From an uncultured Solirubrobacterales bacterium (GTDB lineage Bacteria; Actinomycetota; Thermoleophilia; Solirubrobacterales; JBBDJG01): a stretch of 64,000 nt of DNA. Made by a program: the position numbers and the translations under genes. The notes under the pieces were generated by a model. The model was not told where the DNA came from, ran no database searches, and saw only the letters and a list, made by a program, of their open reading frames with translations. Positions 1 through 48,517 of this stretch are shown one piece after another. The DNA is taken from assembly GCA_963774075.1 (NCBI GenBank), contig CAVZDP010000003.1:408062-472061 (forward strand), written 5' to 3'. Position 1 is the stretch's first letter, and each line of letters opens with the position of its first letter.

Positions 1-1482
1 CCGCACTGGCTCAGCCACCTCGCCGTCACGTTCCTGAAGAGCTCTCACGCGGGCGTCGGCGGCCCGAACATCCCACCGCCGGGCGGCGGACGGACCGCTG
101 ACTGCGTCGCGAACGCGCCCGGTGGGCCGACGCACGTGCTGCTGTCGGACCGCGAGGCGGAGCACATCCCCGGCTGCAACATGGCTTTTCGCAAGGCGAG
201 CCTGGACGCGATCGGCGGCTTCGATCCGCAGTTCCGCATCGCCGGCGACGATGTCGACATCTGCTGGCGGCTCCAGGACCAGGGATGGACCGTGGGCTTC
301 AGTGCCGGTGCCGTCGTATGGCACCACCGGCGCAGCCGGATGCGGGCCTATCTCAAGCAGCAGTACGAGTACGGCAGGGCCGAGGCCCTGCTCGAGCGCA
401 AGTGGCCGGAGCGCTACAACCGCGTCGGGCACCTGGCCTGGGCCGGACGCGTCTACGGCAACGGCGCCACCAAGGGCCTCGTCTGGCGCCGTTGGAAGAT
501 CTACTACGGGCGCTGGGGCTCCGGCCTGTTCCAGTCCGTCTACACCCGCTCTCCCGGCGCGCTCGCCTCGATGCCGCTGGTGCCGGAGTGGTACCTGGTG
601 CTCACGGCGCTCGCCCTGCTGTCGGCGCTCGGGGCGCTTTGGGCCCCGCTGCTGGCGGCGCTGCCCCTCTTCGTCGTCGCCGCCGGCGCGCTGGTGGTCG
701 AGTCCGCACTCGGCGCCTCACGAGCTTCTCTTCGAGACTGCCCTCGATCACGGCTGGGGCGAATGCGCATGCGGAGCAAGGTCGCTCTGCTGCACATGCT
801 CCAGCCTCTGGCCCGCCTGTCTGGCAGGCTGCGCTACGGGCTCGCGCCCTGGCGTCGCCGGTCGGCCGTCATGGCCCTGCCCATCATTCGTCTCCACAGC
901 ATTTGGAGCGAGCGCTGGCAGTCGGCGCACGAGCGCCTGCACACGATCGAGACGGAGCTTCGCAGCCATGGCTGCGCCGTGCTCCAAGGTGGGGAATACG
1001 ACCGCTGGGACCTCCAGGTCCGCGGCGGAATGTTGGGGGTGGCCCGAATGCGAATGGCCGTCGAGGAGCATGGTGCGGGCAGGCAGCTCGTCCGCACACG
1101 CTCATGGCCTAAGTACTCGCGCGTCGGGCTGGCGCTCATCGTCTCATTCGCAGCGCTCTCCGCGGGAGCGGCCTTGGCAGGCACGTGGATCGTCTCCGTC
1201 ATACTAGGAGCGATCGCAGTCCTGCTTGCCGTCTCGGCAATGAGGGACTGTGCGACGGCGGCAGGCGTGCTTGCACGCGTGCTCGACGCGCAGCCGCCCG
1301 AGAGCGAGGTAAGGGTGAGGCGAGCGCCAAAGGGACCACTACACGCGACGCCCTCTTGGGCGAGCGTGGGACCGGCTACGACAGGCAATGGGAACGAGAA
1401 CGGGCGCGAAAAAGGCCGCCGGCTCCGCCCCGCTCGACCTGCCATCCGCTCCACAGGTGATCCCCTTCTCCTCCAAGCATGA
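1..1482 (+). CDS. Glycosyltransferase family 2 protein, 5'-truncated by the window edge, with a hydrophobic C-terminal membrane region
   Basis: Frame 1 is open from nt 1. It reads GPNIPPPGG..ANAPGGPTHVLLSDREAEHIPGCNMAFRK..GGFDPQFRIAGDDVDICWRLQDQGW..VVWHHRRS..QQYEYGRAEA, which is the C-terminal catalytic half of a GT-A/GT2 enzyme. Leu/Ala-rich helices follow (WYLVLTALALLSALGALWAPLLAALPLFVVAAGALVV; VGLALIVSFAALSAGAALAGTWIVSVILGAIAVLLAV). The stop overlaps the next start (ATGA at 1479-1482). Confidence 0.8.
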   Translation, partial: PHWLSHLAVTFLKSSHAGVGGPNIPPPGGGRTADCVANAPGGPTHVLLSDREAEHIPGCNMAFRKASLDAIGGFDPQFRIAGDDVDICWRLQDQGWTVGFSAGAVVWHHRRSRMRAYLKQQYEYGRAEALLERKWPERYNRVGHLAWAGRVYGNGATKGLVWRRWKIYYGRWGSGLFQSVYTRSPGALASMPLVPEWYLVLTALALLSALGALWAPLLAALPLFVVAAGALVVESALGASRASLRDCPRSRLGRMRMRSKVALLHMLQPLARLSGRLRYGLAPWRRRSAVMALPIIRLHSIWSERWQSAHERLHTIETELRSHGCAVLQGGEYDRWDLQVRGGMLGVARMRMAVEEHGAGRQLVRTRSWPKYSRVGLALIVSFAALSAGAALAGTWIVSVILGAIAVLLAVSAMRDCATAAGVLARVLDAQPPESEVRVRRAPKGPLHATPSWASVGPATTGNGNENGREKGRRLRPARPAIRSTGDPLLLQA

Positions 1483-3995
1483 CTGAGGGCGGCTTCTCCC
1501 AGATCGACCCCTACGGGGGCGGGCAGTCGATTGACCCCTACGGGGGTCACGACCCCGAGTCCCCGAACGGCACTCAGACGAACGTTCCCATTCCCGACCC
1601 GGGAGGGAAAAGCTGGCGCACGTGGCGCATCAAGGGCGCCTTCGACCAGTGGAGCACGCTGCCCCGCGTGCTGCCGTACCTGAAGCCGTACAAGAAGCTT
1701 TACTTGGTGGTCTTCCTGACCATCATGGTGGCGTCCCTGGTCGCGCTCGCGGAGCCGTGGCCGTTCGCCCTGATCCTGGACAGCGTGCTCGCCGACCACC
1801 CTCCGGGACTCGGCCTCAGCGGCATCTTCGGCGACAACCCCAACCCCTACACGCTGCTCGTCTTCATCGTGGTCGGGGGCTTCCTGATCACGATCATCGG
1901 GCACAGCATCGAGGTGGTGAACAACTACGCGAGCGCGCGGCTGGAGCAAAACATGGTGCTCGACCTGCGCAGCAAGCTCTTCCAGCACTGCCAGCGGCTG
2001 TCGCTGACGTTCCACGACGACCGCTACACCGGACAGCTGATGAGCATCATCAACCTGCAGGCGAGTGCCGTCGGGTCGGTGATCATGGCGTTCCCGCCGA
2101 TCGTCCAAAACGCCCTGACACTGGTCGGCATGCTCGTGATCGCGCTGCTGATCTCCTGGCAGGTGACCCTGATCTCGTTGGTGGTCGTGCCGCTGATCTA
2201 CTACGCGAGCGGACTCTACGGGACGCGCATCGTGCCCCGTATCCAGCAGGTGATGAGCCTCGAGTGGCGCTCGCTCTCGATCGTGTTCGAGGCCATGTCG
2301 ATGCTGCGCGTGATCGTCTCCTTCGGACGCGAGAAGTACGAGCACCGCCGGTTCCGCGACCAGGCCAAGACCGCCGTCGACGCCCGGGTGAAGCTCACGG
2401 TCAGCCAGACCTTCTTCACGCTCGGCGTGACGGCCGCGACCGCGTTCGGCACCGCCCTGGTGCTCGGCTTCGGAACCTGGTACGTCCTGCGCGGCAACAT
2501 CACCGTCGGTGAGCTGGTCGTCCTGATCTCGTACATCACCGCCGTCTACCAGCCCATGGAGCAGATCGGGACCCAGATCGGGCACCTGCATCAGCAGTTC
2601 GTGTTCGTGAATGCCGCCCTCATGCTCCTGGACGACGTCCCAGAGGTCTCGGACGCACCCGACGCTCAGTCCATCGCGCGCGCGCAGGGAGGACTCACCT
2701 TCGAGAACGTCAGCTTCGCGTACGAGGGCCGCGTGGACACACTCAAGGGCATCTCATTCGACGTTAAACCCGGAGAGCGCGTCGCGATCGTAGGCCCGAC
2801 CGGAGCCGGCAAGACGACGCTGATCAACCTGCTCGTTCGCTTCTACGAGTTCGGGGAAGGCAAGATCCTGATCGACGACAGGGACATCAGGAAGGTGAAG
2901 CTGGAGTCGGTGCGGCAGAACGTCAGCCTGGTGATGCAGCAGCCGATGCTGTTCTCCGGCACCATCGCCGAGAACATCCGCTACGGGCGCCTCGATGCGA
3001 CGATGGACGAGATCGTCGAGGCGGCGAAGTCGGCCAACGCGCACGAGTTCATCTTGGGCCTCCCCGACGGATACGAGACTTCGCTCGGCGAAGGGGGCAT
3101 GCAGCTCTCCGGCGGCGAGCGCCAGCGCCTGTGCGTGGCGCGGGCTTTCATCAAGGACGCGCCGATCCTCGTCCTCGACGAGCCGACTTCCTCAATCGAC
3201 TCGAAGACCGAGAACGTCATCCTCGAGGCGCTGGACGACCTGATGGTCGGGCGTACGTCTTTCATGATCGCCCACCGCCTCTCCACCATCCACGACGCAG
3301 ACAGGATCCTGGTCATGAATCACGGCGAGCTGGTCGAGCAGGGCTCGCACGACGAGCTGCTGGCACGCGGCGGGCTGTACTCCCAGCTCCACACGGCACA
3401 GACGCGGCACAAGGCGCGGCGAGGCGCTGCCGTGCCCGCCGGCATTCCAGGCCCGGAGACCTCCGCGCCGCCCGTCGCGGCTCCTACCGGGCCCCCCGCC
3501 GGTCCTCCCGTCTCTCCCCAGGTCGAACCTCTCCCCGGCCCGCCCGCCGAGCCGGTGGAGGAGCCTCCGCTCGCACCGACTCCAACGCCGCCCGTGCGCG
3601 AGCGCGTCGCGGCCGCGGTCGCCGAGGCACACAGAGCGCCGCCGCCCGACGACGCCGACGGCCCTCCCCCGCGCGAGCCCAACGGCGTGCCGCCCAAGCG
3701 GCCCAACGGGCCCCCGCCTCGCAAGGTGAAAATCAGCAACGGGGTGCGCCACACGCTTCATTGCGATGTCTGCGGGCGCACCTTGCTCAAAGGCGAGATC
3801 GCCGAGCCGTTCGCGGCGCCGCCCTCGGGGCGGAGGAAGCCGGAGCCGGGGCTCGACACCGAGTTCGATGGACCCTTCCTGACCGACTTTCGCAGGATGG
3901 GTCAGACAGAGCGCAAGCTGGTATGCGAGCTGTGCTGGCCACACGCCGAGGAGCAGGGCTGGACGCCGCTTCCGATGCTGGGAGGCCCGTCCTAG
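1479..3995 (+). CDS. ABC exporter, fused permease plus ATPase (ABCB/MsbA-like), with a ~200-aa Pro-rich and CxxC...CxxC C-terminal extension
   Basis: 838-aa ORF with a TM region (LYLVVFLTIMVASLVALAEPWPFALIL etc.). ATPase motifs are Walker A GPTGAGKTT, signature LSGGERQR, Walker B ILVLDEPTSSID and H-loop MIAHRLST. After ~nt 3400 comes a proline-rich linker, then HCDVCGRTLL...VCELCWPH. Confidence 0.9.
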   Translation: MTEGGFSQIDPYGGGQSIDPYGGHDPESPNGTQTNVPIPDPGGKSWRTWRIKGAFDQWSTLPRVLPYLKPYKKLYLVVFLTIMVASLVALAEPWPFALILDSVLADHPPGLGLSGIFGDNPNPYTLLVFIVVGGFLITIIGHSIEVVNNYASARLEQNMVLDLRSKLFQHCQRLSLTFHDDRYTGQLMSIINLQASAVGSVIMAFPPIVQNALTLVGMLVIALLISWQVTLISLVVVPLIYYASGLYGTRIVPRIQQVMSLEWRSLSIVFEAMSMLRVIVSFGREKYEHRRFRDQAKTAVDARVKLTVSQTFFTLGVTAATAFGTALVLGFGTWYVLRGNITVGELVVLISYITAVYQPMEQIGTQIGHLHQQFVFVNAALMLLDDVPEVSDAPDAQSIARAQGGLTFENVSFAYEGRVDTLKGISFDVKPGERVAIVGPTGAGKTTLINLLVRFYEFGEGKILIDDRDIRKVKLESVRQNVSLVMQQPMLFSGTIAENIRYGRLDATMDEIVEAAKSANAHEFILGLPDGYETSLGEGGMQLSGGERQRLCVARAFIKDAPILVLDEPTSSIDSKTENVILEALDDLMVGRTSFMIAHRLSTIHDADRILVMNHGELVEQGSHDELLARGGLYSQLHTAQTRHKARRGAAVPAGIPGPETSAPPVAAPTGPPAGPPVSPQVEPLPGPPAEPVEEPPLAPTPTPPVRERVAAAVAEAHRAPPPDDADGPPPREPNGVPPKRPNGPPPRKVKISNGVRHTLHCDVCGRTLLKGEIAEPFAAPPSGRRKPEPGLDTEFDGPFLTDFRRMGQTERKLVCELCWPHAEEQGWTPLPMLGGPS

Positions 3996-4102: not shown

Positions 4103-6601
4103 GTGCCACGCAACGAGGAGCACACCTTGAGACCCGGAGCCGGGAAGAAGATCGTTCTGCTCGGAATGATGACGCGGATCCCGGTTGCGGGCGTGGTCTG
4201 GCAGACCGTCCACTACCTGATCGGGCTCCGGCGACTCGGCTACGAGGTCTACTACGTGGAGACCCACGCCCGCACGCCCTCGATGCTGATGAAGCGCGAG
4301 GAGGACGACAGCTCCGCCGAGGCGGCCGCCTTCATCGACAAGGTGATGCGGCAGTTCGACATGAAGGACCACTGGGCGTTCATCGGCCTCCATGACGACG
4401 GGCGCTGCTACGGCCTCAGCGAGGAGCGGCTGCGCAAGCTGTATACGTCGGCCGCGCTGCTTCTCAACCTCCACGGCGGTACCGAGCCGCGACCGGAGCT
4501 CTACGCCACCGACCGACTCGTCTACCTGGAGACCGACCCGGTCCAGCTCCAGGTCGAGTTGAGCCAGAACGTGCAGGCGACCCTCGACTTCCTCGAGCCT
4601 CATTGCGCGTTCTTCACCTACGCCGAGAACTCCGGTAACCCGGACTGCGGGCTTCCCGTCCAAGACCGGTTCCCCCTGCTTCCGACGCGCCAACCGGTCG
4701 TTTTGGACTTCTGGCGCGACCGCCCTTCGGGGCCGCTCGAGCGGTTCACGACCATCGGCAACTGGCGCCAACCATGGCGTGACGTCGTCTTCCAGGGCGA
4801 GCGCTACAGCTGGAGCAAGCACCACGAGTTCCTCAAGTTCCTCGACCTTCCGGGCCGCACCGCGCAGCCCTTCGAGCTGGCGCTCTCGAGCTACGAGCCC
4901 GAGGACAAGGCCATGCTCGAGGAGAAAGGCTGGCGGGTGACGCACGCCCTCGACGTCTCGACCGACACCGATCCCTACCGCGACTACATCGTCTCGTCGC
5001 GCGGCGAATTCTCGGTCGCAAAGGACCAGAACGTGCGCCTTCGCACCGGTTGGTTCAGCGACCGCAGCGCGACCTACCTGGCCGCCGGCCGGCCGGTCGT
5101 CTGTCAGGACACCGGGTTCACGAACGTGCTGCCCTCCGGGGAGGGCTTGTTCGGTTTCTCGGACCTGGAGCAGATCGTTTCCGCGATCGAGGAGATCAAC
5201 GGCGACTACGACCGGCATTCTCGTGCCGCAACGAGAGTCGCGGAGGAGTGGTTCGACTCGAGCGTCGTGCTCGGCAAGCTGCTCGACGACGTCGGGCTCG
5301 AGCGCTCGAGGCTGCGCGCGAGGCCGCGGCTCGAGCGGCTGCGGTCGCTGTTTCCCGCCGGGATGGAGCTGACTCCCACCTCGCGCCGGCCCACCGAGCT
5401 CCCGGAAGGGACCGCGAGGGCCGTCCTCGAGCGCCCGGTCGAGAGCTTCGAGCCCGTGGCGAGGCGCGGGCCGCCCCTGGCGAGCGTCGTCGTGGTGACC
5501 CACGACAACCTCGCCTTCACGCGCATGGCCCTCGAGAGCGTGCTGGCCGACCGCGCCGGCGCGGCCTACGAGCTCGTGATCGTGGACAACGCCTCGAGCG
5601 ACGGCACGCGCGACTACCTGCGCGAGCTGGCGGAACGCAACGACGCCGTCAGGCTGGTGCTCAACGAGGTCAACGCCGGCTTCGCGCGTGCCTGCAACCA
5701 GGGCCTGGCGGTCGCGTCGGGAAAGCTGCTCGTGCTGCTGAACAACGACACGATCGTGGCGCCGGCGTGGCTGACACGGCTGGCCGGCTGGCTGGGCGAC
5801 CCCGAGATAGGGCTCGTCGGGCCGGTCACCAACCGGATCGGCAACGAGGCGGAGATCGAGGTCTCATACGAGACCTGGGAAGGCTTCCTCGAGGCCGCGA
5901 ACGCCCGGGGGCGCGACCGCGACGGCGAGAGCTTCGACCTCCCAACCGCGACGATGTTCTGCCTGGCGATGAGACGGGACGCCAACGAGCGGATCGGGCC
6001 GCTAGATCAGCGGTTCGAGGTGGGAATGGTGGAAGACGACGACTACTCGCGGCGCGCCCACGCGGCTGGCTACCGGGTGGTGTGCGCGGAGGACGTGCTC
6101 GTGCACCATTTCGGTGAGAGCTCGTTCGGCAAGCTCGTCCCCACCGGCGAGTACGGCCGCCTGCTGGAGGAGAACAAGCGCCGCTTCGAGGAGAAGTGGG
6201 GAGAGCCGTGGCAACCCTACGGGAGGGGCGAGAAGCCCGACTACGCCGACCTGACGCGGCGGATCCGATCAGTGGTGGCGCAGGCACTGCCGCCGAGCGC
6301 GACCGTGCTCGTCGTGAGCAAGGGGGACGACGAACTACTGAAGTTCGGCGGCCAGCCGGCCCGTCACTTTCCGAGCGCACCGGATGGCACCTGGGCCGGC
6401 CATCATCCGGCGGACAGCCGGGAGGCCGTGGCGCTGCTGGAGGAGATGCGACAGCAGGGCGGCGAGTTCGTGCTCTTCCCGAAGACGGTGCTCTGGTGGC
6501 TCGACTACTACGAGGGTCTTCGGGAGCATCTCGAGGCACGGTACGAGTCGGTGTACAGCGACAAAGAGACGTGCGTGATCTTCGCCCTCAACGGGCGCTA
6601 G
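4103..6601 (+). CDS. Three-domain fusion: ~380-aa GT-B-like module, then a GT2 catalytic domain, then the C-terminal ~95-aa WWLD domain
   Basis: The N-terminal part aligns with the ORFs at 39332, 53637 and 55586 (VVWQTVHYLIGLRRLGYEV.. TGWFSDRSATYLAAGRPVVCQDTGF). The middle part is GT2 (SVVVVTHDNLAFT..VIVDNASSDGT..NAGFARACNQG..LLNNDTIV..EDDDYSRR). The tail is VLVVSKGDDELLKF..HFPSAPDGTWAGHHPAD..VLWWLDYYEGLREHLEARY..CVIFAL. The start is uncertain: GTG 4103, or TTG 4127, which has GAGGAG 7 nt upstream. Confidence 0.85.
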   Translation: MPRNEEHTLRPGAGKKIVLLGMMTRIPVAGVVWQTVHYLIGLRRLGYEVYYVETHARTPSMLMKREEDDSSAEAAAFIDKVMRQFDMKDHWAFIGLHDDGRCYGLSEERLRKLYTSAALLLNLHGGTEPRPELYATDRLVYLETDPVQLQVELSQNVQATLDFLEPHCAFFTYAENSGNPDCGLPVQDRFPLLPTRQPVVLDFWRDRPSGPLERFTTIGNWRQPWRDVVFQGERYSWSKHHEFLKFLDLPGRTAQPFELALSSYEPEDKAMLEEKGWRVTHALDVSTDTDPYRDYIVSSRGEFSVAKDQNVRLRTGWFSDRSATYLAAGRPVVCQDTGFTNVLPSGEGLFGFSDLEQIVSAIEEINGDYDRHSRAATRVAEEWFDSSVVLGKLLDDVGLERSRLRARPRLERLRSLFPAGMELTPTSRRPTELPEGTARAVLERPVESFEPVARRGPPLASVVVVTHDNLAFTRMALESVLADRAGAAYELVIVDNASSDGTRDYLRELAERNDAVRLVLNEVNAGFARACNQGLAVASGKLLVLLNNDTIVAPAWLTRLAGWLGDPEIGLVGPVTNRIGNEAEIEVSYETWEGFLEAANARGRDRDGESFDLPTATMFCLAMRRDANERIGPLDQRFEVGMVEDDDYSRRAHAAGYRVVCAEDVLVHHFGESSFGKLVPTGEYGRLLEENKRRFEEKWGEPWQPYGRGEKPDYADLTRRIRSVVAQALPPSATVLVVSKGDDELLKFGGQPARHFPSAPDGTWAGHHPADSREAVALLEEMRQQGGEFVLFPKTVLWWLDYYEGLREHLEARYESVYSDKETCVIFALNGR

Positions 6602-6608
6602 ACAGTAG

Positions 6609-8141
6609 ATGAGCGCCTCGTGCTCGATCGTCATTCCGGCCCACAACCGCGCGGGGCTGACGCGGCAGTGCGTCGACGCGATCCTGGCCGAAGCTCCGGA
6701 AACGCCCTTCGAGGTCGTCGTGGTGGACGACGCCTCGACGGACTCCACCGCCCGCCTGCTCGAGAGCTACGGCGACCGCATTCGGGCGGTCACGCTGTCG
6801 CCCAACGCGGGCTTCGCCACCGCGTGCAACGAGGGGGCGGCGGCAGCCACCGCGGAGAACCTCGTGTTCCTCAACAACGACACGATCCCGAAGCCGGGCT
6901 GGCTGGACGCGCTCGCCGCCCATGCCGCCTCTCGTCCGAACGCCGCCGTCGTTGGAGCGAAGCTCTTGTTCCCCGACGACTCGATCCAGCACGCCGGCGT
7001 GGTCGTCTGCCAGGACTGGAATCCGCGCCACCTCTACGCCGGCTTTCCCTCGGATCATCCGGCCGTGAACAGGTCGCGCGAGTTCCAGGCCGTCACGGCG
7101 GCCTGTGCGCTGGTGCGGCGCTCCAGCTTCGAGGAGGTCGGCGGCTTCGATCCGGCCTTCCACAACTGCCTCGAGGACACGGACCTCTGCCTGCGTCTCC
7201 GCGAGCGGGGCCACGAGGTCCACTACTGCCACGAGAGCGTGCTCTACCACCTGGAGTCGATCTCGCGCGGGCGACGCTCGAAAGACGTGGAGCGCAACGC
7301 GAAGCTCTTCCGGGATCGCTGGCAGGGCCGGGTGAAGCGCGACGACCTCGACTACTACCTCGCCGACGGACTGCTCAGGATCCGGTATCGCGACAGCTAT
7401 CCGATCGGACTCGAGGTCTCCGCGGAGCTCGCGTTCCTGGTCGGCGACGAACACGCCTCCGAGCGCCTGCTCGACGCCCAGTCGAGGCACGTCACGGATC
7501 TGTTGCGCGAGACGGTGCGGCTGAGCGCTCACGTCGCCGATCTCGAGCTTCCCGGCGCTGCGCGTCCGCCGAGGGAGCAGCCGGCTCCCGCGCCGGTGGT
7601 CTCGGGCGGCACTTTCGATCGCGAACAGCTCCTTCGCCGCGCCGAGCAGATCGAGATCGAGATCTACGAGCTGCAGGCCGGGCTCGCGGCCGCAGCCGAG
7701 GACGGCCGAGGGCGCGGCGGCGACCGCCCATCCTTCGAGCCGAGCGAGCAGCTCGGCTACCGCAAGCTCGTCACGGAGGTGCGCCGCAAGGCGGTCGGCA
7801 TCCTCCCGGCCGGCGCCACCGTGCTCGTTGCGAGTCGCGGGGACGACGACCTGCTGGCGCTCGACGGCCTGCGTGGGTGGCACTTCCCGCAGGACGAGGA
7901 TGGAATCTATGCCGGGCACTATCCGGCCGACGGGGACGCCGCGGTCGCCCATCTGGAAGAGCTGCGCGAGCGCGGGGCGCAGTACCTGCTCCTTCCCGCC
8001 ACGTCGCTGTGGTGGCTCGATCGCTACCCGGAGCTCGGCGCCCACCTGCGCGAGCGACACCGCGTCGCCCTCGAGGACGAGAGCTGCACTGTCTTCGACC
8101 TCCGCGCGCGGGGGAAGAGCCAGGATGCGACTCGCGGCTGA
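6609..8141 (+). CDS. GT2 glycosyltransferase with a central helical linker and the C-terminal WWLD domain
   Basis: GT2 motifs are CSIVIPAHNRAGLT..VVVVDDASTDST..NAGFATACNEG..FLNNDTIP..LEDTDLCLRLRERG. The C-terminus is VLVASRGDDDLLALDG..HFPQDEDGIYAGHYPADGD..SLWWLDRYPELGAHLRERH..CTVFDL. Confidence 0.85.
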   Translation: MSASCSIVIPAHNRAGLTRQCVDAILAEAPETPFEVVVVDDASTDSTARLLESYGDRIRAVTLSPNAGFATACNEGAAAATAENLVFLNNDTIPKPGWLDALAAHAASRPNAAVVGAKLLFPDDSIQHAGVVVCQDWNPRHLYAGFPSDHPAVNRSREFQAVTAACALVRRSSFEEVGGFDPAFHNCLEDTDLCLRLRERGHEVHYCHESVLYHLESISRGRRSKDVERNAKLFRDRWQGRVKRDDLDYYLADGLLRIRYRDSYPIGLEVSAELAFLVGDEHASERLLDAQSRHVTDLLRETVRLSAHVADLELPGAARPPREQPAPAPVVSGGTFDREQLLRRAEQIEIEIYELQAGLAAAAEDGRGRGGDRPSFEPSEQLGYRKLVTEVRRKAVGILPAGATVLVASRGDDDLLALDGLRGWHFPQDEDGIYAGHYPADGDAAVAHLEELRERGAQYLLLPATSLWWLDRYPELGAHLRERHRVALEDESCTVFDLRARGKSQDATRG

Positions 8142-8874
8142 CACGGTCGAGCCGCTTCCCCCTCCGCTCACCCGCGACCTGATCGCACAGCTCGGGTTGC
8201 GCGGGTTGAGCTGCGGGTGCGGCACCCTCCTGCACGAGGGATGGCTCAACACGGACGTGGCCCGCTTCGCCACCGCCGACGGAGCATCAACCGCCCCGGG
8301 GCGCATCGCACTCGTCAACGGCTGCCACTACCTGGAGCACGACGCGACCACACCGTTCCCGGTCGACGACAAGACATTCGACTGGGTTCATTCGGAGCAT
8401 TTCATCGAGCACATCACCCCGGCGGAGGCGATCGATTGGCTGGCCGAGATGAGGCGGCTGCTGAAGCCGGGAGGACACCTCCGCCTGAGCACCCCGGACC
8501 TGCGCAGGTACGCCGAGGGATACCTCGACGAGGGCGGCACGTTCTTCGCCGAGCACCGGCGCCAGCTGAACCTGATGCTGGCTCGCCTGCTCCGTACCCG
8601 CCCGCGCTCGTTGCGGGCATACCTCCCGGGCGAGGACGACATCCCCGATCGGCGAGCCTTCATCTTCAACCAGATCTTCCTGCTGCCGACCTGGGGGCAC
8701 AAGTGGATCTACGACCTCGACGAGCTGCGGCATGCCGCGAGGCGCGCGGGCTTCTCCGGCGACGCTGTCGTGGAGCGCGCCTTTGGGGAGGGGACCGACC
8801 CCGTCGTCGTCGCCCTCGACGCCCCGGCCCACCTCGACGAGAGCCTCTACGCCGAGATCCATAGCGAGCGGTAG
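8125..8874 (+). CDS. Class I SAM-dependent methyltransferase, paralog of 43643-44413
   Basis: An in-frame ATG at 8125 gives MRLAADTVEPLPPP..LRGLSCGCGTLLHEGWLNTD..FDWVHSEHFIEHITPAEAIDWLAEMRRLLKPGGHLRLSTPD..WGHKWIYD. The longer track ORF from 7828 overlaps the upstream gene in another frame. It aligns end to end with the ORF at 43643. Confidence 0.8.
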   Translation: MRLAADTVEPLPPPLTRDLIAQLGLRGLSCGCGTLLHEGWLNTDVARFATADGASTAPGRIALVNGCHYLEHDATTPFPVDDKTFDWVHSEHFIEHITPAEAIDWLAEMRRLLKPGGHLRLSTPDLRRYAEGYLDEGGTFFAEHRRQLNLMLARLLRTRPRSLRAYLPGEDDIPDRRAFIFNQIFLLPTWGHKWIYDLDELRHAARRAGFSGDAVVERAFGEGTDPVVVALDAPAHLDESLYAEIHSER

Positions 8875-43642: not shown

Positions 43643-44413
43643 ATGCCCAGACGCTACGACCAGCTCGAGCTGCTTCCGGACGCGCCGCCGTACGGCGCCG
43701 AGCTGATGCGCCGGATCGGCCTTCGGGGCCTCCAGTGCGGCAGCGGCCCCAAGCTCCCTCCGGGCTGGATGAACACCGACATGGTGCACATCACCTCCAA
43801 GGCCGGTGAGGAAACCGAGAGGGGACGGATCGCGGTGCTCGACGGCAACTTCTACTTCATGGAGCACGATGCAACCGAGCCTTTCCCGTTCGAGGACGCC
43901 TCCTTCGACTGGGTCTACTCGGAGCACTTCATCGAGCATCTCGAACCCGCGGAGGCGATCGCCTGGCTGACCGAGATGCATCGCATCCTCCGCCCGGGTG
44001 GTCACATCCGGGTCAGCACCCCCGACATGGGCAAGTACATGCGCGGCTACGCCGATCCCGCGGGACAGTTCTTCGATCAGCACCACGAGCGGGTGGCCCC
44101 GCACCTGAAGCCGTTCGCGCCTGATGACGAATCCGTCCCGCTTCCGCGGCGGCAGTTCGCGCAGCGGTACATGCCGGGAGAGCAGGAGGTGCCCGCCAGG
44201 CGCGCCTTCCTCGTCAACCAGATCTTCTTCTTCTGGGGGCACAAGTGGATCTACGACTTCGAGGAGCTGCGGTGGGCGCTCTCCTGCGCGGGCTTCGACC
44301 CCGCGAACGTGGTCGAGCGCGGCTTCCGGGAGGGCAGCGCGCCCGAGCTGGCCCAGCTCGACCTGGAGCTGAGGAACGACGAGAGCGTGTACGCGGAGGC
44401 CGTCCGTACTTAG
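43643..44413 (+). CDS. Class I SAM-dependent methyltransferase, paralog of 8125-8874
   Basis: It reads LRGLQCGSGPKLPPGWMNTD..FDWVYSEHFIEHLEPAEAIAWLTEMHRILRPGGHIRVSTPD..WGHKWIYDFEEL. Confidence 0.85.
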   Translation: MPRRYDQLELLPDAPPYGAELMRRIGLRGLQCGSGPKLPPGWMNTDMVHITSKAGEETERGRIAVLDGNFYFMEHDATEPFPFEDASFDWVYSEHFIEHLEPAEAIAWLTEMHRILRPGGHIRVSTPDMGKYMRGYADPAGQFFDQHHERVAPHLKPFAPDDESVPLPRRQFAQRYMPGEQEVPARRAFLVNQIFFFWGHKWIYDFEELRWALSCAGFDPANVVERGFREGSAPELAQLDLELRNDESVYAEAVRT

Positions 44414-44898
44414 ACCCTCTCTCTCGGAGTTGGGGCGCCCTCCCGCTCGAGGATCACGACCGGGATCTCTCGGTGCGTCAACCGCCGGTACTGCTCAAAT
44501 CCGGAGTACTGCTCGAGAATGCTCGGCCACAGCCGATTCTCCTCTTCGGCCGATGCACGCCTGGCACGAACTACGCGATGCTCCCCGCGGAAGTCGACTT
44601 CAGCTTGGGGATTCGCCTGAAGGTTGAGCCACCACGCGGGCGGACGGTCCTGCCCCGCATTTGACGGCACTACTACCAGGTCATCGCCGTGGGGCATGCA
44701 GGCTATGACCGTTGATCGTGCCGCCCCGGATTTACGCCCCGTCGTGGTGAGGGCGAGCACAGGCTGACCAGCCGCAAAGAGAAACGAGCGTTTGAGCCGG
44801 CCGCCGCTCATCCGCAGGATCCTTGCGTGTAGCCGAGTTACGCGGGTCGCGATGAAGCGAGGCCGGCTGAGGATGTTGCTAACGCGGGCCAGGCTCAC
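44410..44898 (-). CDS. Deazaflavin (F420H2)-dependent nitroreductase-family protein (DDN/DUF385-like), copy 1
   Basis: It reads VLALTTTGRKSGAARSTVIACMPHGDDLVVVPSNAGQDRPPAWWLNLQANPQAEVDFRGE..EENRLWPSILEQYSGFEQYRRLTHREIPVVILE. Its stop codon overlaps the convergent methyltransferase stop. Confidence 0.85.
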   Translation of the reverse strand: MSLARVSNILSRPRFIATRVTRLHARILRMSGGRLKRSFLFAAGQPVLALTTTGRKSGAARSTVIACMPHGDDLVVVPSNAGQDRPPAWWLNLQANPQAEVDFRGEHRVVRARRASAEEENRLWPSILEQYSGFEQYRRLTHREIPVVILEREGAPTPRERV

Positions 44899-45206
44899 CC
44901 GAAGAGCCTAACTCCTTTCGCGCAATGCACAAGCCCGCGAACCGAAGGTCGCATTAGCTACAACGGACCGGTTGGGAAGACGATCAGCTTTGCGGGCGGT
45001 TTCCTTTTGAGCCAACGCGGCTGCGTACCGCTCGAGGTGCGAGTTCGAGGGCGTCGTCCGACGCGCGCGCGCATTCCATTCGGCGTCGGTCGCTGCTGAG
45101 AGCAGTCGCGTCAGCGCCCAGACTTTTTTGGGTACTCGATCCACGCCGCCTGGGCCGTGGTTCGTCGCGGGACGCTGCTGGGTTTCGCGATGCGACAGCG
45201 CGGCTT

Positions 45207-45615
45207 CTACGTGGAGTCTTCCGCAATGCCAGCGGCTTCGAAGGCCCGGCTCCGATCGGTGTGTATCGAGAGGCGAGCGACCTTGCCGCCAACCAAGGTC
45301 CAGACATGGAAGAAGCGTTGCCAAACCTCGGAATCGCTTCCCTTTAGCCGCCCCCCGTCGCGGATGCGAGTGATCACCTGCTTCTCGTCGGCATAGACCA
45401 CCTCTTCGATTTCGATACGGAAATCGTCAAAGGTCTTCCAGTACGGAAGCATGCTTTCCTGGACGGCGTCGTATCCCCGAAGGACCCCAACCGTATCCAG
45501 GGGGACATCTGAATCATCAGATTCAAAGTCTGGCTCGAATAGCTCCCGAGGTGGCTCGAGGCGCACAGTGACCCCGTCATAGATACGCGACCACGTCGAG
45601 GTTCGCTTGCGACAT
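45207..45615 (-). pseudogene. NTF2/SnoaL-like protein gene with an apparent 1-nt frameshift after codon ~9
   Basis: ATG 45615 gives MSQANLDVVAYL then a stop at 45577. The +1 frame continues without a stop as RIYDGVTVRLEPP.. into the 119-aa ORF 45207-45566, which ends ..KVARLSIHTDRSRAFEAAGI. The total span is 409 nt (3n+1). Alternatively the gene simply starts at GTG 45566 and lacks the first helix. Confidence 0.5.
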
Positions 45616-45737
45616 CTCTCGCGGAGTATAGGTTCCTACCTCGCCGCTCCTGGCGGACCGCGGTGCTGCAGTTCGCGCAGGCAGTCGCACGGCCTCCGCG
45701 CAATCCAGCAGCGGCCGACCCGACCCCTGCGAACGAT

Positions 45738-46058
45738 CTACGAGCTCCGGGAACCAGTCTCTGAAGAAAAGCCGAGATCCAGCCCGCTCGTCTTGCCGCC
45801 CCCGCTGAAGTGCTGGAGCACGAGCACGCGCTCGCTGTCGAGTTCGCGAAACTCCTCCGCCTCGAAGCGGACGTCCTCCGAGGCGCTCAATCGTCCCCGC
45901 CAGGCCTCTGCCATCTCGGCTATCCCTTTGAAGTGCCCGGGATCTGGCCCGTCGGGTAGCACGTACTCGATCTCGGGGTGCGCCCATTCAGCAGAGCTCC
46001 AGTCGCCGCGCTCCCAGGCGGCGTAGAGGGACCGCACGAGATCCAGATTCGCCGACAC
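45738..46058 (-). CDS. NTF2/SnoaL-like protein, possibly 3'-disrupted
   Basis: An in-frame GTG at 46058 gives VSANLDLVRSLYAAWERGDWSSAEW..FKGIAEMAEAWRGRLSASEDVRFEAEEFRELDSERVLVLQHFSGGGKTSGLDLG. The ORF then ends in FSSETGSRSS without the expected last strands. The +1 frame reads LFFRDWFPELVDRSQ..AEAVRL, resembling the C-terminus of the neighbouring paralog. Confidence 0.5.
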   Translation of the reverse strand: MSANLDLVRSLYAAWERGDWSSAEWAHPEIEYVLPDGPDPGHFKGIAEMAEAWRGRLSASEDVRFEAEEFRELDSERVLVLQHFSGGGKTSGLDLGFSSETGSRSS

Positions 46059-46257
46059 GGTGAGCCAAGTATCCACGATTTCTATGTAGCTGAAGGGCTC
46101 GGGTCCGTGGACGCAGCGCTGCCCGCCCCGCGGTTCTCGTCCAGGACGCAAGTGATGGCCGATAAGCTGGAGTCGCCCCGGCGCACGACACCAGGACGGG
46201 TCCGTAGCTCACACACCGACACTGCACAGCTTCTCGCTGTGGGAGGGACGAGGCACG

Positions 46258-46518
46258 ATGGAAACGCTGCTTGTGTTTCACGAGGTAGACGACGTCGACC
46301 ACTGGCTCGCTTCACCGAAGCGAGAGGAATTCTTCGGGCCGCTGGGAATGACGGCGCGCACTTTTCGGGACCCGGCGGGCTCGAATCGGGTCGGGCTGAT
46401 CGTGGAGGTCCCGGACATCGCTGCCTGGGAGGAAGCACTGCAGACTGAGGCGGCGGCGGAGGCAATGAAGTTCGACGGTGTTCGCCCCGAGACGATCTTG
46501 GGCCTCGTGGAGGCGTAG
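46258..46518 (+). CDS. Small hypothetical protein (86 aa)
   Basis: The ATG start is at 46258. The sequence is non-repetitive and balanced in composition (METLLVFHEVDDVDHWLASPKREEFFGPLGMTARTFRDPAGSNRVGLIVEVPDIAAWEEAL..). No family assigned. Confidence 0.55.
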   Translation: METLLVFHEVDDVDHWLASPKREEFFGPLGMTARTFRDPAGSNRVGLIVEVPDIAAWEEALQTEAAAEAMKFDGVRPETILGLVEA

Positions 46519-46679
46519 CGCAAAGATCCGTTCCACGCGGCTGCCTTCCGGACCAACGCCGCGTGGCGGTCGTTTCTCGCGCAATGGGGCAGCGAGCATG
46601 GGCTGGCCAGATAAATCTCCCCCTTCGGAAGGGCCGGGCCGACTGCACGCAGCCGCCGTCGCGGCCGATCGGCGGATGC

Positions 46680-47513
46680 TCAGGAGCTCGCCGAGGTGAA
46701 ACGCAGAATCTCGGAGGCCACCAGCTCCGGGTCGTCGAACATCGCGGTGTGGCCGCAGCCGGTCAGCTCGCGCAACTCCCCGTCCGGCAGCTCGGCGAGG
46801 AATCGCTCGGCATGTTCGCGCGAAAAAAGTCGATCGCCGGACGGATGGAGGATGAGTACGGGACAGCTCACCCGCTCCAACCCATCGATCCGAGCGATCC
46901 CCCCGTCAGCGCCCGTGTTCGCGGCGAGGTGTGCGGCGACGTCGCAGTGGGCGAACTGGGCCAGCAGGCGCTCCGCCTCGACAGGCGGGATCCGGGACGG
47001 GTCGACGCAGTTGTCGGCTAGCAGCAGGCGTCTTCCCCGACGGACGTGAACCAGCCGACGCGCGAGCGGCTTTAGCATCCGGATCGTGCGGTGGTCGCGG
47101 CGAGACTTCTTCGCGAAGGCGTGCCATTCGTCGCGCGTGAACATCCCGGCGGGGGCAACCCCGACGACGGTTCGCGCCCGCCCGCGCTTGGCGAGCTCGA
47201 GCGCCAGCCAGCCGCCGAGTGAGTTGCCGGCGATGTCGGGCCGCTCGAATCCCGCGGCATCCAGCTCCGCTTCGACGGCGTCCGCCCAGGTCTCGACCGT
47301 GGGCGCGGCCCCGGCGTCGAGCGGCGGCGACCCGAGGTGGTCGGGAAGCGTCGGCGCGAGCACCTCGCGTTCAGCAGTGAGTCGGTCGAGTACGGGCGAC
47401 CAGCTGTGCCAGCTCTCCCAGATCCCGTGAAGCAAGAGGAGCGGCGCGCCGCTTCCGGCGCGGTAACGGTCGACTTCCACGCGCGGAGTATTCCACGGAC
47501 CGCGGCGATTCAC
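46680..47513 (-). CDS. Alpha/beta-hydrolase fold protein
   Basis: It reads APLLLLHGIWESWHSW..IAGNSLGGWLALELA (a GxSxG nucleophile elbow) ..CPVLILHPSGDRLF..GCGHTAMFDDPE. The GTG start at 47513 forms a GTGA overlap with the reconstructed stop of the upstream NTF2-like gene. The 345-aa track ORF fuses the two genes. Confidence 0.75.
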   Translation of the reverse strand: MNRRGPWNTPRVEVDRYRAGSGAPLLLLHGIWESWHSWSPVLDRLTAEREVLAPTLPDHLGSPPLDAGAAPTVETWADAVEAELDAAGFERPDIAGNSLGGWLALELAKRGRARTVVGVAPAGMFTRDEWHAFAKKSRRDHRTIRMLKPLARRLVHVRRGRRLLLADNCVDPSRIPPVEAERLLAQFAHCDVAAHLAANTGADGGIARIDGLERVSCPVLILHPSGDRLFSREHAERFLAELPDGELRELTGCGHTAMFDDPELVASEILRFTSASS

Positions 47514-47872: not shown

Positions 47873-47977
47873 GAGTCGCAGTATCGCGACGCCGCCCATC
47901 CGCGTAAAGGGGTCTCAGGGTGTTGCTCCTCGGCGATCAGAGCGCCACGCACCCCTTTTGTGTACGCGTCATGCTGT

Positions 47978-48517
47978 ATGGGTCCGACCCCGGAAAAGCA
48001 CTGGGAGATCGACGTCGCCGAACCACTGACCTACGCCCAGGCGAACCCGCTCCAGAAGTCGCTGCGCCGCTTCGCAGCCAGCCGCCCGGGCGCATGGCTC
48101 TTCGCGGGCATTCTGCATCACATCGATGAACCCGTGTACCGGCTTTCGCGAGGCCGGCACACGTTCGCGAGCCTGTTGTCAGGATTGCCCGTCGTCATGC
48201 TGACGACGACCGGCGCGCGCAGCGGTGTGCGGCGCTCGGCGCCGGTGCTCGGCGTTCCAACCGAATACGGCCTGGTCGTGATTGCGTCGTCCTGGGGCCA
48301 GGAGCGCCACCCTGCCTGGTACTACAACCTGCGCGCCAATCCCGAGGGTGAGGTCAGCGTCGACCGGACTACGCAGCGATTCCGCGCGACAGAGGCGCAG
48401 GGCGACCAGCGCGAACGGATCTGGCAACAGGCTGTGCGGATCTATCCGGGTTGGTCGACATACGAGCGGCGCGCTCCGCATCGGCGCATCCCCGTGCTCG
48501 TGCTCGACCCGGTCTGA
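47978..48517 (+). CDS. Deazaflavin (F420H2)-dependent nitroreductase-family protein (DDN/DUF385-like), copy 2
   Basis: An in-frame ATG at 47978 gives MGPTPEKHWEIDV.. It continues VVMLTTTGARSGVRRSAPVLGVPTEYGLVVIASSWGQERHPAWYYNLRANPEGEVSVD..RERIWQQAVRIYPGWSTYERRAPHRRIPVLVLD. The upstream part of the track ORF (from 47528) is antisense to other genes. Confidence 0.85.
   Translation: MGPTPEKHWEIDVAEPLTYAQANPLQKSLRRFAASRPGAWLFAGILHHIDEPVYRLSRGRHTFASLLSGLPVVMLTTTGARSGVRRSAPVLGVPTEYGLVVIASSWGQERHPAWYYNLRANPEGEVSVDRTTQRFRATEAQGDQRERIWQQAVRIYPGWSTYERRAPHRRIPVLVLDPV

Follow-up and report, generated by a model that had tools for sequence, protein, structure and literature searches.

A proline-rich tether and a predicted treble-clef-like Cys4 finger at the C-terminus of ABCB-type exporters in putative Solirubrobacterales glycan cassettes

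Introduction

ABCB-type (type IV) exporters of the ATP-binding cassette (ABC) superfamily are usually described as bare engines, in which a transmembrane domain (TMD) is followed by a nucleotide-binding domain (NBD). Accessory domains are known mainly at the N-terminus, as peptidase or C39-like domains, or in other ABC classes, such as the carbohydrate-binding domain (CBD) of Wzt and the regulatory domains of importers. Here, we describe an ABCB-type exporter that has an accessory module at its C-terminus. Its gene lies in a 64,000-nucleotide stretch of DNA (hereafter, the window) from an uncultured Solirubrobacterales bacterium (GenBank assembly GCA_963774075.1, contig CAVZDP010000003.1, positions 408,062 to 472,061 of the forward strand; window coordinates count from its first letter). 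An earlier note, made from the sequence of the window, had drawn attention to the gene product as an exporter with a proline-rich linker and a tail of two CxxC pairs.

The closest described systems are the ABCB half-transporters MsbA, NdvA/ChvA, HepA and the PglK-like proteins, which share with the window exporter the TMD-NBD order, the PF00664 and PF00005 domains and all of the ATPase motifs. PglK, NdvA and HepA are moreover encoded among glycosyltransferases, as is the window exporter. The window exporter differs from MsbA, NdvA, ChvA, HepA and PglK in that its C-terminus is extended by 193 aa, which include a Cys4 finger, and we know of no family of the MsbA, NdvA/ChvA, HepA or PglK kind with such an extension.

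Domains or helices that follow an NBD have been described elsewhere. Wzt, of the O-antigen WzmWzt transporters, has an accessory carbohydrate-binding domain after its NBD and is encoded in a locus with glycan-modifying enzymes (PMC9445017). The likeness to the window exporter is that an accessory domain follows the NBD of a glycan ABC exporter, among glycan-modifying enzymes. However, Wzt belongs to a different, channel-forming ABC class with separate Wzm and Wzt subunits, and its β-sandwich CBD lies close to the NBD, whereas in the window exporter the TMD and NBD are fused, and a 65–90-aa finger (a hairpin and a helix as predicted by AlphaFold2, AF2), which also occurs in non-glycan proteins, sits on a tether of ~100 aa. 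A second likeness is to the C-terminal helices of BmrA and Atm1 (PMC11774805; PMC8694623) and to the zipper helices of TmrAB; here, the shared feature is a short conserved helix after the NBD. The Wzt CBD and the helices of BmrA, Atm1 and TmrAB are the nearest functional analogies, and neither is homologous to the tail described here.

Results

The tail is genuine coding sequence

Past the motif that ends the NBD (GGLYSQLHTAQTRHK, aa 631–645, nt 3369–3413), the exporter continues for 193 further residues to a stop codon at 3993–3995. The earlier note had read the frame of this tail as continuous with that of the NBD and had asked whether homologous exporters carry it; the continuity is borne out, and homologues do carry the tail. 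The GC content at third codon positions (GC3) in the exporter frame is 0.78–0.88 across the whole tail, and the periodicity shifts frame only past 3995. A full-protein search returned thousands of homologues, the best 120 of which are the basis of all exporter counts given here. Many of these cover 93–100% of the query, and 37 of the 120, drawn from NCBI, JGI and ENA assemblies, end in the same CxxC...CxxC module with all four cysteines invariant. In an alignment of 31 such tails from independent assemblies, the four cysteines are accompanied by an invariant leucine and by invariant R767, E773, E817, A823, G827 and W828, a pattern of conservation well above chance. The fusion is present in a complete-chromosome metagenome-assembled genome (MAG) of an uncultured Solirubrobacterales bacterium (locus L004), where the exporter has 822 aa, and a profile scan of genomes with tail alignment A3 found 3 loci.

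The ratio of nonsynonymous to synonymous substitution rates (dN/dS), calculated at codon level against the closest orthologue (L002, likewise from a Solirubrobacterales MAG), is 0.21 for the finger, 0.19 for the NBD, 0.23 for the TMD and 0.43 for the linker. Purifying selection on the finger is as strong as that on the NBD and TMD, and it is relaxed on the linker. Given the GC3 of the tail, the fusion in 37 homologues (one of them from a complete-chromosome MAG) and the dN/dS of the finger, we regard a missed stop, a frameshift and a spurious open frame due to high GC as excluded in practice.

A word-index search with the tail alone gave one match, P0001, a 94-aa stand-alone ORF on a 1367 bp contig (L001; ENA ERZ27267677 k141_219087). 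On this contig (region of interest 849–1367), the finger ORF follows the 3′ end of an EF-G gene and precedes the first part of a gene homologous to the glycosyltransferase gene that lies downstream of the exporter. We considered, and rejected, the possibility that P0001 represents the tail as a separate gene elsewhere. The contig matches the fused locus L002 (12256–12664) at 96% DNA identity, beginning only at the first Cys codon, and upstream of that codon it has the EF-G context seen with the free-standing finger paralogue described below. Most likely, L001 arose by chimeric assembly or by recombination between paralogous fingers, one free-standing and the other an ABC tail. Within the window, a separately translated free finger is unsupported, since the in-frame GTG codons at 3726 and 3744 have no Shine-Dalgarno-like sequence in front of them.

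The exporter belongs to the ABCB class

The rest of the protein has all the defining features of an ABCB-type half-transporter (Table 1), as the earlier note had proposed. Walker A (GPTGAGKTT), signature (LSGGERQR), Walker B (ILVLDEPTSS) and H-loop (IAHRLST) motifs are all readable in the translation. The MsbA model of NCBIfam aligns to aa 63–643, and the best NCBIfam alignments are to MsbA, a cyanophycin-associated ABC protein, a glucan exporter and HepA. The exporter nevertheless scores below every curated NCBIfam equivalog cut-off (for MsbA, 447 bits against 602 with TIGR02203 and 367 against 867 with PRK11176), and by this measure it is not an equivalog of MsbA, NdvA or HepA; the host, as an actinobacterium, is presumably without lipid A. 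Since there is only one ABC gene in the cassette, the exporter presumably acts as a homodimer. An identical protein (100%; P0002) is present in NCBI/ENA on a 936-kb contig. The translational coupling to the upstream membrane-associated family 2 glycosyltransferase (GT2) reported in the earlier note can be read directly as an ATGA overlap at 1479–1482, in which the exporter ATG occupies 1479–1481 and the GT2 TGA 1480–1482. As a side observation, the cytoplasmic N-terminal extension that precedes the first transmembrane (TM) segment holds a tandem peptide repeat, SQIDPYGGG / QSIDPYGGH (1497–1547, aa 7–23).

The Cys4 module has a predicted treble-clef-like fold

The two cysteine motifs of the module are HCDVCGRTLLKGE (aa 761–773, nt 3759–3797) and VCELCWPHAEEQGW (aa 815–828, nt 3921–3962). 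The earlier note had counted 61 residues between them; the second motif actually starts 54 residues after the first, and 50 residues lie between the CxxC pairs. AF2 was run on the window module with the 31-tail alignment (mean predicted local distance difference test score, pLDDT, 69; core 76–91) and on a homologue with a short spacer between the CxxC pairs, using a mixed alignment (mean pLDDT 78.6; core 86–92). Both models have a common topology, in which a short strand and the first CxxC knuckle are followed by a β-hairpin, a strand that ends at the third cysteine, and a helix that starts at the third cysteine and holds the fourth. The second CxxC is at tail residues 71/74 with the helix at 72–80 in the window module, and at residues 47/50 with the helix at 48–56 in the compact form. 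Because the second CxxC sits at the N-terminus of this helix, the fold is predicted to be treble-clef-like and not a zinc ribbon. Thus, the four candidate ligands in two CxxC pairs that had led to the zinc-ribbon label stand, and on these predictions the label itself does not. From the sequence and the predicted fold, we infer that the four cysteines hold a structural Zn2+.

The same arrangement of CxxC knuckle, β-hairpin and second CxxC at a helix N-terminus is found in treble-clef C4 fingers such as the ClpX zinc-binding domain (ZBD), L24e/TRASH/FCS, ZZ and FYVE, but none of these families reaches threshold with the window finger. The window tail has no Pfam match at E≤1 and no NCBIfam match, and PDB sequence profiles match it only at E≥0.03. 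When 34 members of the finger family were compared with Pfam, the only matches were sub-threshold ones to RING-like, ZZ, FYVE, zf_Tbcl_2 ("probable treble clef") and zf-FCS models; overall, no search of Pfam, NCBIfam or PDB sequences gave a match over threshold, whether with the tail, the compact domain or the free-standing proteins as the query. Foldseek found nothing significant in the PDB (best E=0.15 to 1), the top weak matches being eS21, the p62 ZZ domain, an archaeal zinc-ribbon RNA-binding protein (aRDF) and a PARP1 finger. Similarly, hhalign comparisons of the domain profile with three finger sequences were not significant (probability 1.3% for the ClpX ZBD, 1.5% for the DksA finger and 12.5% for L24e). 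The finger is near neutral, with a net charge of +1.

The extreme C-terminus, EQGWTPLPMLGGPS (3951–3992, aa 825–838; consensus GW[TS].LP.[LVP]GG), extends past the finger helix and is conserved in the subclade of long-spacer exporters described in the next section. Judging by its sequence, it could be a short linear motif.

The wide cysteine spacing reflects an insertion

The spacer between the CxxC pairs is 26–56 residues in finger-tailed exporters, 50 in the window exporter and 23 in the free-standing family. In tail alignment A2 (31 sequences), the short-spacer homologues are gapped at a site between the β-hairpin and the second CxxC, where the window protein has ~25 additional residues. 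This segment carries a conserved GPFLTDFRR sequence that is predicted to form a short helix (an AF2 helix at tail residues 58–64). When the transporter cores were clustered by a rough unweighted pair group method with arithmetic mean (UPGMA), the long-spacer proteins (47–56, the window exporter included) formed one subclade, mostly apart from the short-spacer proteins (26–35). Because long-spacer exporters cluster together and their short-spacer relatives are gapped at this site, the wide spacing is derived, by insertion into a compact finger, with an ancestral spacing of 23–35.

The finger has abundant free-standing relatives

An exhaustive profile search with the tail and P0001 against 1.84 billion cluster representatives gave 75 matches, made up of ABC-tail fragments, one eukaryote-like repeat protein, and small proteins with an N-terminal finger. 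The repeat protein (P0122) matched only on the low-complexity middle of the profile and was discarded. The small proteins have the motif CDVCGRT[IL]LKGERTE.YLAPGG.R..VCELC..RAE..GW[IL]RE. With one of them (P0158) as the query, more than 4,000 proteins were found at E≤1e-5. The best 120 are ~240–280 aa long, have no Pfam domain, come from Thermoleophilaceae or Solirubrobacterales, and are called "hypothetical protein" wherever they are named; 119 of them have a spacer of exactly 23 residues. The four cysteines are invariant in this family too, and its mean net charge is 0.2.

In the free-standing proteins, the finger is followed by a linker rich in Arg and Glu and then by a conserved C-terminal domain (...HVRAVPT..E.K.ERAL.LFN.SEH.RTVAG...VAWELSWY.Y.VDL...). 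A reciprocal hidden Markov model (HMM) of the family matches the window ORF in two segments, one on each side of the insertion (E=1.2e-9). Its C-terminal ("VAWELSWYQY") domain has no counterpart in the window or in the related cassettes. A weak match of the HMM at 47940–48194 on the minus strand of the window is Arg-rich, lies in a non-coding frame and is spurious. Since detection works in both directions, the exporter finger and the N-terminal finger of the ~250-aa Thermoleophilia proteins (P0158, P0213, P0280), which share the motif CDVCGRT[IL]LKGE...VCELC..RAE..GW, belong to one undescribed domain family. The two differ in that the free-standing proteins have the finger at the N-terminus, a spacer of 23 and the "VAWELSWYQY" domain, whereas the window exporter has it at the C-terminus, with a spacer of 50 and without such a domain.

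The claim that the appendage is novel to exporters therefore needs qualification. It is undescribed on MsbA/ABCB exporters, as the earlier note had supposed: it has no matching Pfam, NCBIfam or PDB family, and the open-access literature gave no description of a zinc-finger tail on an ABC exporter, or of the glycan cassette, although such an absence is not proof. It is not, however, unique to this genome, being clade-wide in exporters and present at the N-terminus of thousands of free-standing proteins.

In two long contigs, the free-standing gene is part of the gene order integrase-like gene, (sigma factor), EF-G paralogue, finger protein and RNase H. In locus L009, inserted genes interrupt the synteny of EF-G and the finger gene, and in an actinomycete locus (L005) the finger gene has other neighbours. 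In several database entries, a single "protein" runs on from the C-terminus of EF-G into the finger protein.

The linker is variable and holds a short helix motif

The segment between the NBD and the finger is 33% proline over aa 646–745, in keeping with the Pro-rich linker of the earlier note. Compared with the closest orthologue, its amino acid identity is 0.54, and its dN/dS (0.43) contrasts with 0.19–0.23 for the core; among homologues, its length ranges from ~73 to 163 aa. The conserved motif inside it, VRERVAAAVAEAH, resembles the "VIETLENAVRQRVRAAL" helix motif of 56 finger-less homologues among the best 120, and on sequence grounds it is probably a truncated version of that motif. The VRERVAAAVAEAH / AVRQRVRAAL motif may be an analogue of the C-terminal helices of type IV exporters. 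However, the helices of BmrA, Atm1 and TmrAB come straight after the NBD and are packed within the dimer, whereas the window helix is at least 60 residues into a probably disordered tail and has another domain after it.

The exporter belongs to a conserved cassette with exchangeable tails

A four-gene cassette is kept in every related locus examined, and consists of a ~880-aa GH2_C + GT2 + TM protein, the ABC exporter, a ~810–835-aa glycosyltransferase (GT) and a ~500–530-aa GT2. The window begins within the first of these genes, the full-length orthologues of which (in L002, L006, L007, L008 and L011) encode the ~880-aa form, and the glycosyltransferase of the 832-aa type is always directly 3′ of the ABC gene in these loci. 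By gene content, the cassette would be a conserved glycan assembly and export unit of Solirubrobacterales (Thermoleophilia). Further downstream, the window contains methyltransferases, more GTs and a large GSDH/PKD protein.

Although the cassette is constant, the tail of the exporter is not. Cassettes L002, L004, L006 and L007 have the finger tail. In L008, the exporter ends in a short amphipathic helix, VIETLENAVRQRVRAAL, followed by an acidic Gly-rich tail, a type shared by 56 of the best 120 homologues. In L011 (8001–10202; P0120), as well as in P0104 and P0107, the tail is a ComEA-type helix-hairpin-helix domain (HhH_3, PF12836). The type of tail tracks the rough UPGMA clustering of the transporter core. 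Orthologous cassettes carry finger, HhH_3 or helix at one position, and so the tail appears to be a swappable accessory.

Both downstream glycosyltransferases end in an unannotated "WWLD" domain of ~110 aa (6260–6598 and 7800–8138), which has no Pfam match and the consensus ...ATVLVVSxGDDxLL...HFP...AGHxPADSxEAVAxLE..R..GAxYLLxPxTxLWWLDxY.... A ~760-aa unannotated upstream gene was considered as a source of a partner for the finger and rejected; it is in L006 and L007 and missing from L002 and L004. The L006 locus also has a sulfotransferase gene.

Table 1. Positions of the exporter, its parts and associated genes (window coordinates unless a locus is named)
Feature	Position (nt)	Strand	Basis or remark
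ABCB-type (type IV) half-transporter gene, including tail	1479..3995	+	single ORF, 838 aa, without internal stop
Transmembrane domain, aa 76–360	1704..2558	+	PF00664 ABC_membrane, E=7.8e-39
Nucleotide-binding domain	2742..3413	+	PF00005 ABC_tran aa 422–571, E=6.3e-34; domain runs to about aa 645
Linker, aa 646–749, poorly conserved, probably disordered	3414..3725	+	composition; relaxed dN/dS
Short conserved helix motif VRERVAAAVAEAH inside linker, aa 706–718	3594..3632	+	7 closest finger-tailed homologues
Cys4 zinc-finger-like module, aa 750–838	3726..3992	+	invariant Cys, AF2, HMM homology, dN/dS 0.21
Candidate ligands C762, C765, C816, C819	3762–3764; 3771–3773; 3924–3926; 3933–3935	+	invariant Cys
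Lineage-specific ~25-aa insertion between β-hairpin and second CxxC, about aa 787–810	3837..3908	+	alignment A2 gap
Upstream membrane-associated GT2, 3′ part, 493 aa	1..1482	+	Pfam Glyco_trans_2_3 / Glyco_tranf_2_3
832-aa glycosyltransferase: N-terminal GT-B-like region, GT2, unannotated WWLD C-terminal domain	4103..6601	+	Pfam, synteny
Second GT2, 510 aa, same WWLD C-terminal domain, fourth cassette gene	6609..8141	+	Pfam, synteny
Free-standing finger genes	L009 7001–7795; L010 7001–7708; L005 ~5970–6582		

Two further observations concern the rest of the window. The longest ORF of a methyltransferase gene (7828–8874) overlaps the preceding GT2 gene (6609–8141) by ~300 nt, so that its annotated length is uncertain; the true start is probably an internal codon, such as GTG 8217. 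In addition, a stretch of ~2.2 kb (44413–46680) has no ORF of at least 80 codons at high GC3 (>0.82), and Rfam and tRNA scans of the whole window, this stretch included, gave no matches.

Discussion

We put the probability at about 0.9 that the window encodes a single-chain ABCB half-transporter with a vertically inherited Pro-rich tether and a treble-clef-like Cys4 finger, in a conserved cassette. What the finger does is a more tentative matter, and to our preferred reading, that the leashed finger is a docking module for a cytoplasmic partner, we assign a probability of about 0.45. According to this reading, the ~100-residue low-complexity Pro-rich tether, with its one short helix, would carry the finger away from the NBD, and the finger (~65–90 residues) would not be part of the transport engine but an accessory docking module built around a structural zinc. 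It would capture a cytoplasmic partner, most likely a protein, so that the exporter stays beside that partner or at a set position in the cell. Because orthologous cassettes have HhH_3 or no terminal module in its place, the finger would serve to adjust coupling or localization, and not to make transport itself possible. A protein partner is favored because the finger is near neutral and small fingers on leashes usually mediate protein contacts.

Several observations weigh against this reading. Most of the invariant finger residues can be explained as structural and need not mark a binding surface; metal binding is itself a prediction, and the fold search gave nothing significant. The earlier note had suggested that the tail could tether cytoplasmic enzymes of the locus or sense a ligand; in the one comparison that bears on these roles, the WWLD domain is present with every type of tail and does not co-vary with the finger. 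Among the loci compared, no gene accompanies only the finger-tailed cassettes. Finally, the HhH_3 alternative and the EF-G/RNase H neighborhood of the free-standing family point to a nucleic acid or ribosome as the ligand.

This last point can be developed into an explanation of its own, in which the finger and HhH_3 bind DNA, RNA or the ribosome and link the exporter to the nucleoid or the translation machinery, the free-standing proteins acting in association with the EF-G paralogue. Domains of the HhH_3 type typically bind nucleic acids, and one takes the same terminal position in an orthologous cassette; the free-standing homologues have Arg-rich linkers, and their genes directly follow an EF-G paralogue and precede RNase H; and the best, if weak, fold matches include small ribosomal or RNA-binding zinc proteins (eS21, aRDF). 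We nevertheless think a nucleic-acid tether unlikely. The net charge of the finger is about zero, the fold matches (E≥0.15) fall short of significance and are of the kind that any small finger would give, and the synteny with EF-G is not universal, as it differs in L005 and is interrupted by inserted genes in L009. Moreover, glycan export is not known to be functionally linked to nucleic acids. That the finger or HhH_3 couples the exporter to the nucleoid or to translation, for example for co-translational assembly of the cassette enzymes, and that the free-standing family is an unrecognized translation or RNA factor, would be a long shot.

An explanation that we judge equally unlikely is that the tail is a regulatory switch, either as a Cys4 sensor of redox state or metal, or as a finger that binds to the NBD dimer of its own transporter and so inhibits or activates ATP hydrolysis. 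C-terminal regulatory domains of the importers MetN, ModC and MalK provide a model, and Cys4-Zn centers are established redox switches in Hsp33 and RsrA. The module is the next domain after the NBD, and its leash is long enough for it to fold back; the conserved GPFLTDFRR insertion, specific to one subclade, suggests an added interface. However, a leash of 73–163 residues that varies in length and sequence would be unusual for an intramolecular regulator, the same finger is found at the N-terminus of unrelated soluble proteins, and sister clades do without it.

It is rather improbable that the fingers of a homodimer, or of neighboring transporters, pair with each other to stabilize the dimer or cluster the exporters. 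Half-transporters must dimerize, and some small treble-clef domains, such as the ClpX ZBD, do so. C-terminal helices are also reported to matter in the exporters BmrA and Atm1 (PMC11774805; PMC8694623). Against such self-association, a long flexible linker would add little to the stability of a dimer, and the hhalign comparison with the ClpX ZBD sequence gave a probability of only 1.3%.

Very improbable, in our view, is a tail that reads a terminal methyl or sulfate on the finished glycan in the manner of the C-terminal carbohydrate-binding domain of Wzt. The methyltransferases in the window and the sulfotransferase in L006 would fit such a role, and there is the precedent of a substrate-recognizing domain on the NBD of a glycan ABC transporter (PMC9445017). 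However, AF2 predicts a tiny zinc finger and not a β-sandwich CBD, the finger also occurs in non-glycan contexts, and the type of tail varies while the cassette enzymes stay constant. Lastly, an artifact that fuses a separate small gene to the ABC gene, by a missed stop, a frameshift or a chimeric assembly, is essentially refuted: high-GC DNA does leave long spurious frames open and the short contig L001 shows the finger as its own ORF, but L001 is itself a probable chimera or recombinant, and the coding signals of the tail and the fusion in 37 independent homologues, one of them from a complete-chromosome MAG, tell against it.

The finger-tailed exporter is a real, previously unannotated architecture. 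Its practical value is modest pending a partner or a ligand. Thousands of Thermoleophilia hypothetical proteins without a Pfam or NCBIfam model contain the same finger, and this abundant, undescribed family deserves a domain definition. For the exporters themselves, a clade encoded in glycan loci that has a leashed finger, with sister clades that have HhH or a bare helix, offers a natural experiment in how an exporter is wired to its partners.

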